From Chlamydiae bacterium CG10_big_fil_rev_8_21_14_0_10_42_34 (lineage in GTDB: Bacteria > Chlamydiota > Chlamydiia > Chlamydiales > SM23-39), in assembly GCA_002773795.1 (NCBI GenBank), contig PFAD01000008.1:61699-125698 (forward strand): DNA of 64,000 nt. Reading direction: 5' to 3'. The stretch's first letter is position 1. Every line of letters begins with the position of its first letter. Made by a program: the position numbers and the translations under genes. A model generated the notes under the pieces. The model was given only the letters and a program-made list of their open reading frames with translations, did no database searches and was not told the origin of the DNA. Shown here piece by piece: positions 59,378 through 60,040 of this stretch.

Positions 59378-60040
59378 ATGACTTTTTTAAATAAGATTGT
59401 TGCGTCTCTTCTGCTTTGTTCTGCAATTGCGGGGGTTTGTCAGGAAAATAACTTAGAGCAAGATATTCAGCTTGGTACTTACAAGCCAGATACATTGCAG
59501 AGGAAAGAGAAGAACTTTCTTTTTGCATCTTTGTCTATCGCTCCGGGCGGTGGATATTCGGCGCGCATGAGAAAAGATAGTCATGGCCTGGCATCTGATT
59601 TCAAAATTGGAGTCTTTCCGGTTTCTTTTGACAGCATATTTTACGTTCCCACCGTAAGTTACGATTTTATTAACCCGCTAGGCAAAAATGAGACAAATTG
59701 CTTGCTACGGCTTTGCTATATTGATCCTCTATTGTCGACCATGGTGTTACCATGGCCTCCTCCCTCGGAACGCTTTGCTTCAATCTGGCTTTGCCTCGCT
59801 CGCGCACTTTGTCTCATTTTTGCCTAGCGGGTTAATAACTACGTGTACTATTTCAGAAAAAACGAAGTGTCTCCCTACTTTTCGTGTGGTGTAGGTGCGG
59901 TTTATTTTTTTCCTTATGTCCCAATCCGAGCAGGAATTGAGTTCAAAGGGGGATTTGTAGATGCTGGGGGAAAACTATTGTTTTATCCAGGTATTCTCCC
60001 ATCTCCGGAAATTAGGGGCGGCTTTAAAATCGATTTCTAG
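59378..60040 (+). pseudogene. Putative outer-membrane protein gene interrupted by a MITE
   Basis: Removing 59670-59835 plus one TA gives ...PTVSYDFNYVYYFRKNEVSPY... in a 164-aa ORF with a signal peptide and C-terminal GFKIDF. Confidence 0.8.
59670..59835. mobile_element. 166-bp MITE with perfect 28-bp TIRs and a TA target duplication
   Basis: TTAACCCGCTAGGCAAAAATGAGACAAA (59670-97) and its exact reverse complement (59808-35), flanked by TA on both sides. Confidence 0.92.

Follow-up and report, generated by a model that had tools for sequence, protein, structure and literature searches.

In an uncultured environmental chlamydia, a palindromic repeat sits inside a putative outer-membrane protein gene and lengthens that gene by a whole number of codons, which raises the question of what the repeat is, where it came from, and whether it can still move or be read as part of the protein. 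The locus lies near the end of the window, i.e., the whole stretch of 64,000 nucleotides that was analyzed. A preliminary description, made from the letters of this stretch, had proposed an intact MITE, and the features to which our analysis refers are the following.

59306-59669, + strand: 5′ part of the disrupted barrel gene, ending ...VSYDF (homologue alignments)
59668-59669: left copy of the TA target duplication
59670-59835, + strand: MITE of the TTAACCCG...CGGGTTAA family, 166 bp (sequence and family alignments)
59670-59697, + strand: left terminal inverted repeat, 28 bp, TTAACCCGCTAGGCAAAAATGAGACAAA
59709-59716, + strand: left copy of the conserved interior motif GGCTTTGC (family alignments)
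59739-59755, + strand: apical hairpin CCATGG-TGTTA-CCATGG
59787-59799, + strand: conserved strand-specific interior motif GGCTTTGCCTCGC, near the right end (family alignments)
59808-59835, - strand: right terminal inverted repeat, 28 bp, fully complementary to the left one
59825-59827, + strand: TAG stop in the host frame, within the CTAG of the right inverted repeat
59836-59837: right copy of the TA target duplication
59838-60040, + strand: 3′ part of the disrupted gene, NYVYYF...GGFKIDF and stop, original frame kept (homologue alignments)
48060-48202, + strand: older MITE belonging to another subfamily of the TTAACCCG superfamily, with AGGCCT as its spacer and a right end decayed to GGATTAATA

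The exact 28-bp inverted repeats and the TA on each side of a 166-bp element were recovered. The two TTAACCCGCTAGGCAAAAATGAGACAAA ends are complementary at 28/28 positions with 0 mismatches, no match to this 28-nt inverted repeat arose by chance in 100 shuffles of the window, and the repeat reaches 35 nt at 97% complementarity. The element has no coding capacity, with stops in all six frames. Its predicted folds are far more stable than those of shuffled sequences, both as single-stranded DNA (-44.2 kcal/mol; z, -10.5) and as RNA (-78.1 kcal/mol; z, -11.1). The internal hairpin that had been described is present as well, at 59739-59755, but its loop reads TGTTA, and the TAACA given for it is the reverse complement.

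The limits of the element follow from a short sister copy on contig C12 of the same genome. This copy ends in CTAACCCG...CGGGTTAG, i.e., CTAA...TTAG, so that the change is mirrored and not repeated; TTAA is thus part of the MITE ends and only TA is duplicated, as is also indicated by gapless homologue alignments across the junction. The ends of the C12 copy covary as an inverted and not as a direct pair, which rules out boundaries at ACCCG...CGGGT as well as a duplication of TTAA or, in the manner of IS5/IS1031, of 3 bp (TNA). These alternative boundaries would moreover give two extra residues that are present in no homologue.

With these limits, the filled gene measures 735 nt and the joined flanks with a single TA measure 567 nt, both multiples of 3, and the net insert is 168 nt, the 56 codons (TA included) that had been counted previously. 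The joined flanks form one open frame (...SYDFNYVYYF...) with the empty-site junction GATTTTAACTACG. Three ATG codons are candidate starts (59306, 59366, or 59378), and a signal-peptide-like segment follows the one at 59378. In the filled gene, translation agrees with the earlier reading: the host frame stays open for 52 element codons (INPLGK...CLIFA) up to the TAG at 59825-59827, the sole stop of the insert in that frame, and then resumes with RVN and NYVYYF... until its own stop at 60038-60040. The TAG in the right end terminates a truncated product (P0001) of 153/173 amino acids, and annotation pipelines divide the disrupted gene into "hypothetical proteins" of 153/173 and 65 residues. All family-invariant residues remain intact in the 3′ gene part (59838-60040).

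Relatives carrying an uninterrupted gene were found at the protein level. Intact homologues occur in two related genomes (G017, 52% identity; G008, 45%), and a large protein collection contains 11 further chlamydial homologues, all "hypothetical proteins" of ~170 residues. The alignment across the junction S-x-D-Y/N-x-L (the slash marks the insertion point) is gapless in 13/13 intact homologues, with D and N invariant, indicating that the insertion is derived and precise and adds exactly 56 codons. The ...SYDFNYVYYF... that precise excision would restore corresponds to the family consensus in these alignments. DNA-level matches in related genomes cover the element only, without its flanks (query positions ~360 to 535), and no DNA-level empty site was found in the same species.

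The host protein has no Pfam or NCBIfam match, and a metagenome scan returned no relatives. A structure was predicted for an intact homologue, P0004. Its AlphaFold2 model (11-sequence alignment; pLDDT, 77.6; pTM, 0.63) comprises a signal-peptide helix (residues 3 to 17), a disordered linker, and eight beta strands. The top Foldseek matches in the PDB are PagP, OmpX, OmpA-TM, NspA, OmpW, and PagL, all of which are eight-stranded outer-membrane barrels; match probabilities range from 0.97 to 1.0, yet the E values are weak (3.5e-3 to 0.04) and TM scores lie between 0.41 and 0.47. The C-terminal residue of the family is mostly Phe, including in the disrupted gene, with Tyr in one member. The model and its matches to solved barrels sustain the earlier proposal of an outer-membrane protein gene and support the inference that the host gene encodes a predicted eight-stranded barrel of ~165 residues. 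The insertion point falls between Y104 and N105 of the P0004 model, inside predicted strand 4 (residues 96 to 109). The truncated product lacks predicted strands 5 to 8 and the C-terminal Phe, which makes the gene a pseudogene. No second copy of the barrel gene was found in the window's genome, and the presence of the family in only 3/30 relatives marks it as an accessory gene.

The neighborhood of the disrupted gene can be described briefly. Directly upstream are three divergent genes on the - strand (57068-59130), among them one for a 134-residue TPR_2/TPR_3 protein of a size typical of type III secretion chaperones, flanked by genes for proteins of 306 and 244 residues without family match. 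A gene for an MscS-type channel lies downstream (60061-61131).

The element is not alone. A genome-wide copy search, as had been advised, showed that the window's genome contains six paired copies, which fall into several subfamilies (C8:100112, C12:22714, C13:121368 [the window MITE], C13:164415, C20:61317, and C21:114178), plus solo ends and the decayed copy at 48060-48202 of the window. The nearest sister copy in this genome is ~85% identical and carries a deletion, and the nearest one anywhere is 92% identical, in the related genome G013. Matches to the element alone were obtained at the DNA level in 15/31 related genomes. Scanning the GTDB species genomes (596 Gb) with the end consensus yielded more than 118 loci, against an estimated ~4 chance matches, and these belong mostly to Chlamydiota MAGs (Rhabdochlamydiaceae, Parachlamydiales), with some labeled Verrucomicrobia. 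Solo pattern matches in Paraglaciecola, Nitrospinia, and Omnitrophota were discounted as being within the ~4 expected by chance. Overall, 75 distinct paired copies were compared. TA is present on both sides in 69 of them, their sizes cluster at 157 to 184 bp, and a T stands outside the TA (position -3) in 101/150 flanks, which makes T-TA-A the preferred target; the site in the barrel gene, TTTAAC, matches it. Among 21 copies whose contexts were checked, open frames across the site are short in most, and most contexts look intergenic.

Several loci met during the family search deserve mention in their own right. The complete 2.13-Mb Parachlamydiales chromosome OY970065.1 (G062) carries more than 25 family copies (including L061, L071, L079, L081, L083, L092, and L094), several of them nearly identical, and no homologue of the parent transposase described below was found in it at an E value of ≤1e-5. 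In CAZWIP01 (G063), a 3.7-Mb MAG labeled Dehalococcoidia, dozens of contigs (L056, L058, L060, and ~30 more) end ~51 nt inside a repeat of the MITE family, which means either that the copy number is very high or that sequence of chlamydial type was binned into this MAG. In "Candidatus Rhabdochlamydia" sp. JOPF242 (L151; JASHWX010000090.1), a pair of MITEs from one subfamily, whose outer ends are identical, stands 2.3 kb apart in a layout resembling a composite transposon, and the interval encodes SctR/SctT-type inner-membrane type III export proteins; this 2,303-bp pair was rejected as an autonomous element, being two MITEs that bracket type III export genes. A solo end at C21:11662 was likewise rejected as the end of an insertion sequence (IS), since it adjoins a gene for an SNF2 helicase and not a transposase. 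Finally, the window contains an unrelated MITE-like palindrome at 21595-21764, whose 47-nt arms (TGAACCTATCCTAATAAAA...) are 77% complementary and enclose a 28-nt inner palindrome that is 93% complementary.

The frame-neutral length of the insert had led the preliminary description to evoke Rickettsia palindromic elements (RPE) and to place the element one mutation away from an in-frame peptide insert. The likeness is real in that both are palindromic mobile repeats with a frame-preserving length in a coding gene of an obligate intracellular bacterium, and a reading in which the insert becomes a translated peptide, its frame neutrality being selected, can point to the exactly 56 added codons, to the single stop, and to family lengths that lean slightly toward multiples of three. 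Length plus 2 leaves a remainder of 0, 1, and 2 in 34, 20, and 21 of the 75 copies, respectively; this bias is nonsignificant (P of ~0.09), and the copies are not independent. Moreover, whereas an RPE insert is read through in an intact host protein, here the TAG at 59825-59827 ends the frame in a broken gene, and the MITE family differs further from RPE in being mostly intergenic, in its clear TA duplication, and in having a parent IS whose type is known. The short open frames across the site in most of the 21 copies checked also speak against a translated insert, as does the encoded peptide itself, which is hydrophobic and cysteine-rich. The insertion interrupts a predicted transmembrane strand, the fourth of eight, so that a read-through protein would be unlikely to fold. 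Overall, the likeness to RPE is weak; selection for a translated insert appears very improbable, and the multiple-of-three length looks like a one-in-three coincidence.

The origin of the element could be traced through the family ends. One of the loci found in the GTDB scan (L129:1187-2308, in MAG OY970323.1) is a 1,118-bp IS flanked by TA, the left end of which matches the MITE end at 26/30 terminal bases and the other end at 24/30, TA included. Its 345-residue ORF scores 209 bits against the IS630 transposase family NF033545 (cutoff, 100) and 134 bits against DDE_3 (PF13358). Both elements are TA flanked with TTAACCCG ends; the IS, in contrast to the MITE, is autonomous, and it has no similarity to the interior of the MITE. 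The link between the two is based on end similarity and the TA duplication. On these grounds, the MITE is best described as a putative non-autonomous derivative of an IS630-family IS with termini of TA followed by TTAACCCG, and the IS630 attribution made earlier from the TA duplication holds, now with a concrete parent type.

The search for an autonomous partner, also advised beforehand, thus succeeded in another MAG and gave nothing in the window's genome. The genome carrying the intact IS (G061) has a single copy of it and no MITE detectable by BLAST, and none of the genomes examined holds both an intact IS and the exact subfamily of the window MITE. C-terminal transposase remnants 65 to 72% identical to the type are present in three genomes (G013, G018, and G036), and in the latter two they run directly into family-type ends and TA; in genus and family relatives of the window's genome, the parent transposase occurs as remnants only. 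A TIR-like match beside an IS630 fragment at another locus (L022) proved to be a chance match inside a tRNA gene and was set aside.

Related elements exist elsewhere. In the sediment Chlamydiae MAG CAISYW01 (G064), four contigs (L187 to L190) start with an identical 139-nt IS 3′ end, each followed by TA and a different flank, and the encoded C terminus is 75% identical to the parent transposase. Identical 3′ ends with four different flanks indicate a multicopy IS collapsed by assembly, which was probably active recently. Annotated transposases closest to the parent type are at most 49% identical. One IS630 element at 49% identity (WP_282487090.1) resides on a plasmid of "Candidatus Megaera polyxenophila" (Rickettsiaceae) and has ends of TA followed by TTAACCCA; its outermost bases are like those of the MITE, with divergence after position 8, and unlike the MITE it is autonomous, with a dissimilar interior. 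In the plasmid record NZ_CP104167.1, which contains 11 matching places, an IS630-family element with ends of TA followed by TTAACCCACC... (L184; 159180-160699) is apparently inserted in a recombinase gene. The Megaera ends suggest that this end type is common to Rickettsiales and Chlamydiota symbionts of protists.

Short derivatives of IS630-type elements are known in other bacteria, e.g., the RUP of Streptococcus pneumoniae, an IS630-type MITE attributed to IS630-Spn1. The chlamydial family resembles IS630 ISs and their MITEs in its TA duplication, lack of coding capacity, hairpin-forming potential, and many scattered copies, and in inverted repeats of ~26 to 30 bp held in common with a ~1.1-kb DDE_3/NF033545 IS. 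It differs from them in that its termini (TA followed by TTAACCCG...AAA.AG.TGACAA) and its interior are specific to the chlamydial/PVC lineage, and in that the window's host genome lacks the parent IS, the closest annotated transposases being as distant as stated above. The Correia elements of Neisseria (CREE/NEMIS) provide a second comparison. These elements are ~100 to 160 bp long and duplicate a TA target; like the window MITE, they form hairpins and have terminal inverted repeats that start with TA, and their interior motif GCGAGGCAACGCC resembles GCGAGGCAAAGCC of the MITE. To our knowledge, no transposase for Correia-type elements has been identified. In an index search, the string GCGAGGCAACGCC was matched in a 1987 paper on a gonococcal repeat. 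One variant of the Correia end shares with the window MITE the subterminal block CAAAAAT(C/G)AG(G)ACAA (PMC5039591), although the Correia inverted repeat (tatagtggattaac...) and the MITE end match at only 9/28 bases when aligned without gaps. The outermost 12 to 14 bases and the host phylum also differ, and on account of these outer bases the window MITE is not a Correia element.

Comparison of the family copies then revealed how the ends vary. Positions 1 to 8, 15 to 17, and 19 to 27 are conserved across the family, while positions 9 to 14 (59678-59683 and 59822-59827 in the window MITE) are hypervariable, with 45 variants in 75 copies. At these variable positions, the two ends of a given copy nonetheless tend to match, with mismatches in ~13% of cells and three to four base-pair types per column. 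The ends of the autonomous IS are, in contrast, unlike each other at positions 9 to 14 (CTAAAC versus ACAGGC). Strong conservation of the interior is confined to one strand (GCTTGCTGCGGCTTTGCC...ATCTGGCTTTGCCTCGCT.GCGC); the motif at 59787-59799, of which the one at 59709-59716 is a direct repeat, is >85% conserved over 49 copies. GGCTTTGCC occurs in both halves of the MITE as a direct and not an inverted repeat, thereby producing T·T mismatches in the hairpin, and the apical hairpin is also found in other copies with a different sequence. Covarying ends together with a one-strand interior suggest either that a folded single strand is selected or that one end is corrected against the other. 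It is tempting to extend this to the ~165-bp TTAACCCG-type MITEs of Chlamydiota as a whole, which would then be more than decayed IS ends, their folded DNA or RNA form being selected or copy corrected, but we regard this proposal as rather doubtful. If it were true, the block shared with Correia repeats would hint that the Correia-type transposase belongs to the IS630 clade of the parent IS.

The same observations, i.e., ends that covary precisely where copies differ from one another, next to an autonomous IS whose ends do not match, and interior motifs strongly conserved on one strand, could also be taken to mean that the repeat serves first and foremost as a structured nucleic-acid module (a terminator, a processing site, or a protein-binding site) whose presence in a gene is a by-product. 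Such a function seems improbable to us: transposition fully accounts for the TA duplications, the IS-matching ends, and the scattered, mostly intergenic sites, and a regulatory role is unlikely for the window copy, which sits within the coding region that it interrupts.

We then asked whether the window MITE can still be considered mobile. With its perfect ends, its intact TA duplication, and gene halves that show no decay, the insertion appears young when measured against gene decay. The description of the element as recent and probably active could not be upheld beyond this. The window's genome, which is 97.5% complete in 21 contigs, yielded neither a DDE_3 (PF13358) domain nor a sequence homologous to the parent transposase (best tblastn E value, 0.28), and no family ends were found at the tips of its contigs, although an IS copy could have been left out of the assembly. 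The nearest copy in the genome, at ~85%, is distant, and the filled site is uniform: in 8 metagenome samples, it is carried by at least 10 contigs that are 99.97 to 100% identical over 0.9 to 3.5 kb. The samples with this strain are JGI 3300004208, 3300004209, 3300025142, and 3300025850 and the ENA assemblies ERZ27293386, ERZ27293400, ERZ27293412, and ERZ27293414. The joined protein, used as a query against 5.8 billion protein clusters, retrieved no intact allele and matched nothing but the truncated product. Since assemblies drop rare variants, an empty-site allele could nevertheless exist in a minority.

These data bear on the idea that the MITE is a reversible switch for a surface protein, mobilized by a transposase acting in trans (e.g., one supplied by an unassembled IS or by other chlamydiae coinfecting the protist host) and restoring the gene upon precise excision. 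The perfect ends and TA duplication and the undecayed, in-frame gene halves are in keeping with such a switch, and relatives of the parent IS are probably active in other chlamydial MAGs. Against it stand a genome without transposase, sister copies that are never near-identical (85% at best in the genome itself and 92% in G013), and the lack of polymorphism or of any intact allele in the material searched; excision by Tc1/IS630-type elements, in addition, usually leaves footprints. We thus assign this possibility a low probability. With the transposase absent and the insertion fixed, the element is a stranded copy and not an on/off switch, so that of the previously proposed switching off of a surface protein, the truncation of the barrel gene stands and the switch does not. 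We favor a well-preserved but stranded MITE copy fixed in the sampled clonal population.

Altogether, we consider it very likely that an IS630-derived MITE inserted precisely into the barrel gene, broke it, and is now stranded, its frame neutrality being coincidental. The steps can be reconstructed from the anatomy of the element and from its relatives. A DDE transposase of the IS630 type, acting in trans, would have bound the MITE ends, presumably through positions 1 to 8 and the AAA.AG.TGACAA block at positions 15 to 27, excised the element, and inserted it at a T-TA-A site with duplication of TA. The site lies in the codons D-F/N-Y of the ~165-residue barrel gene, where, as the sequence shows, 56 codons are added inside predicted strand 4 and the TAG of the right end closes the frame, leaving a truncated product and a pseudogene. 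The transposase is absent from the genome today, and the insertion is fixed in the clonal population sampled.

This is clearly ordinary gene loss caused by mobile DNA in an uncultured environmental chlamydia, and ordinary selfish-DNA behavior. A full-text literature search found no papers describing MITEs in Chlamydiae, and the main account of Rhabdochlamydia mobile elements deals with transposases and insertion sequences only, the word MITE being absent from it (PMC9723776). The locus provides a documented case of a gene inactivated by a MITE in Rhabdochlamydiaceae, for which the published account of genome reduction covers full insertion sequences only (PMC9723776), and a chlamydial MITE family of wide occurrence is now linked to a concrete IS630-type parent. 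Recognizing the MITE would also correct the split "hypothetical protein" annotations.
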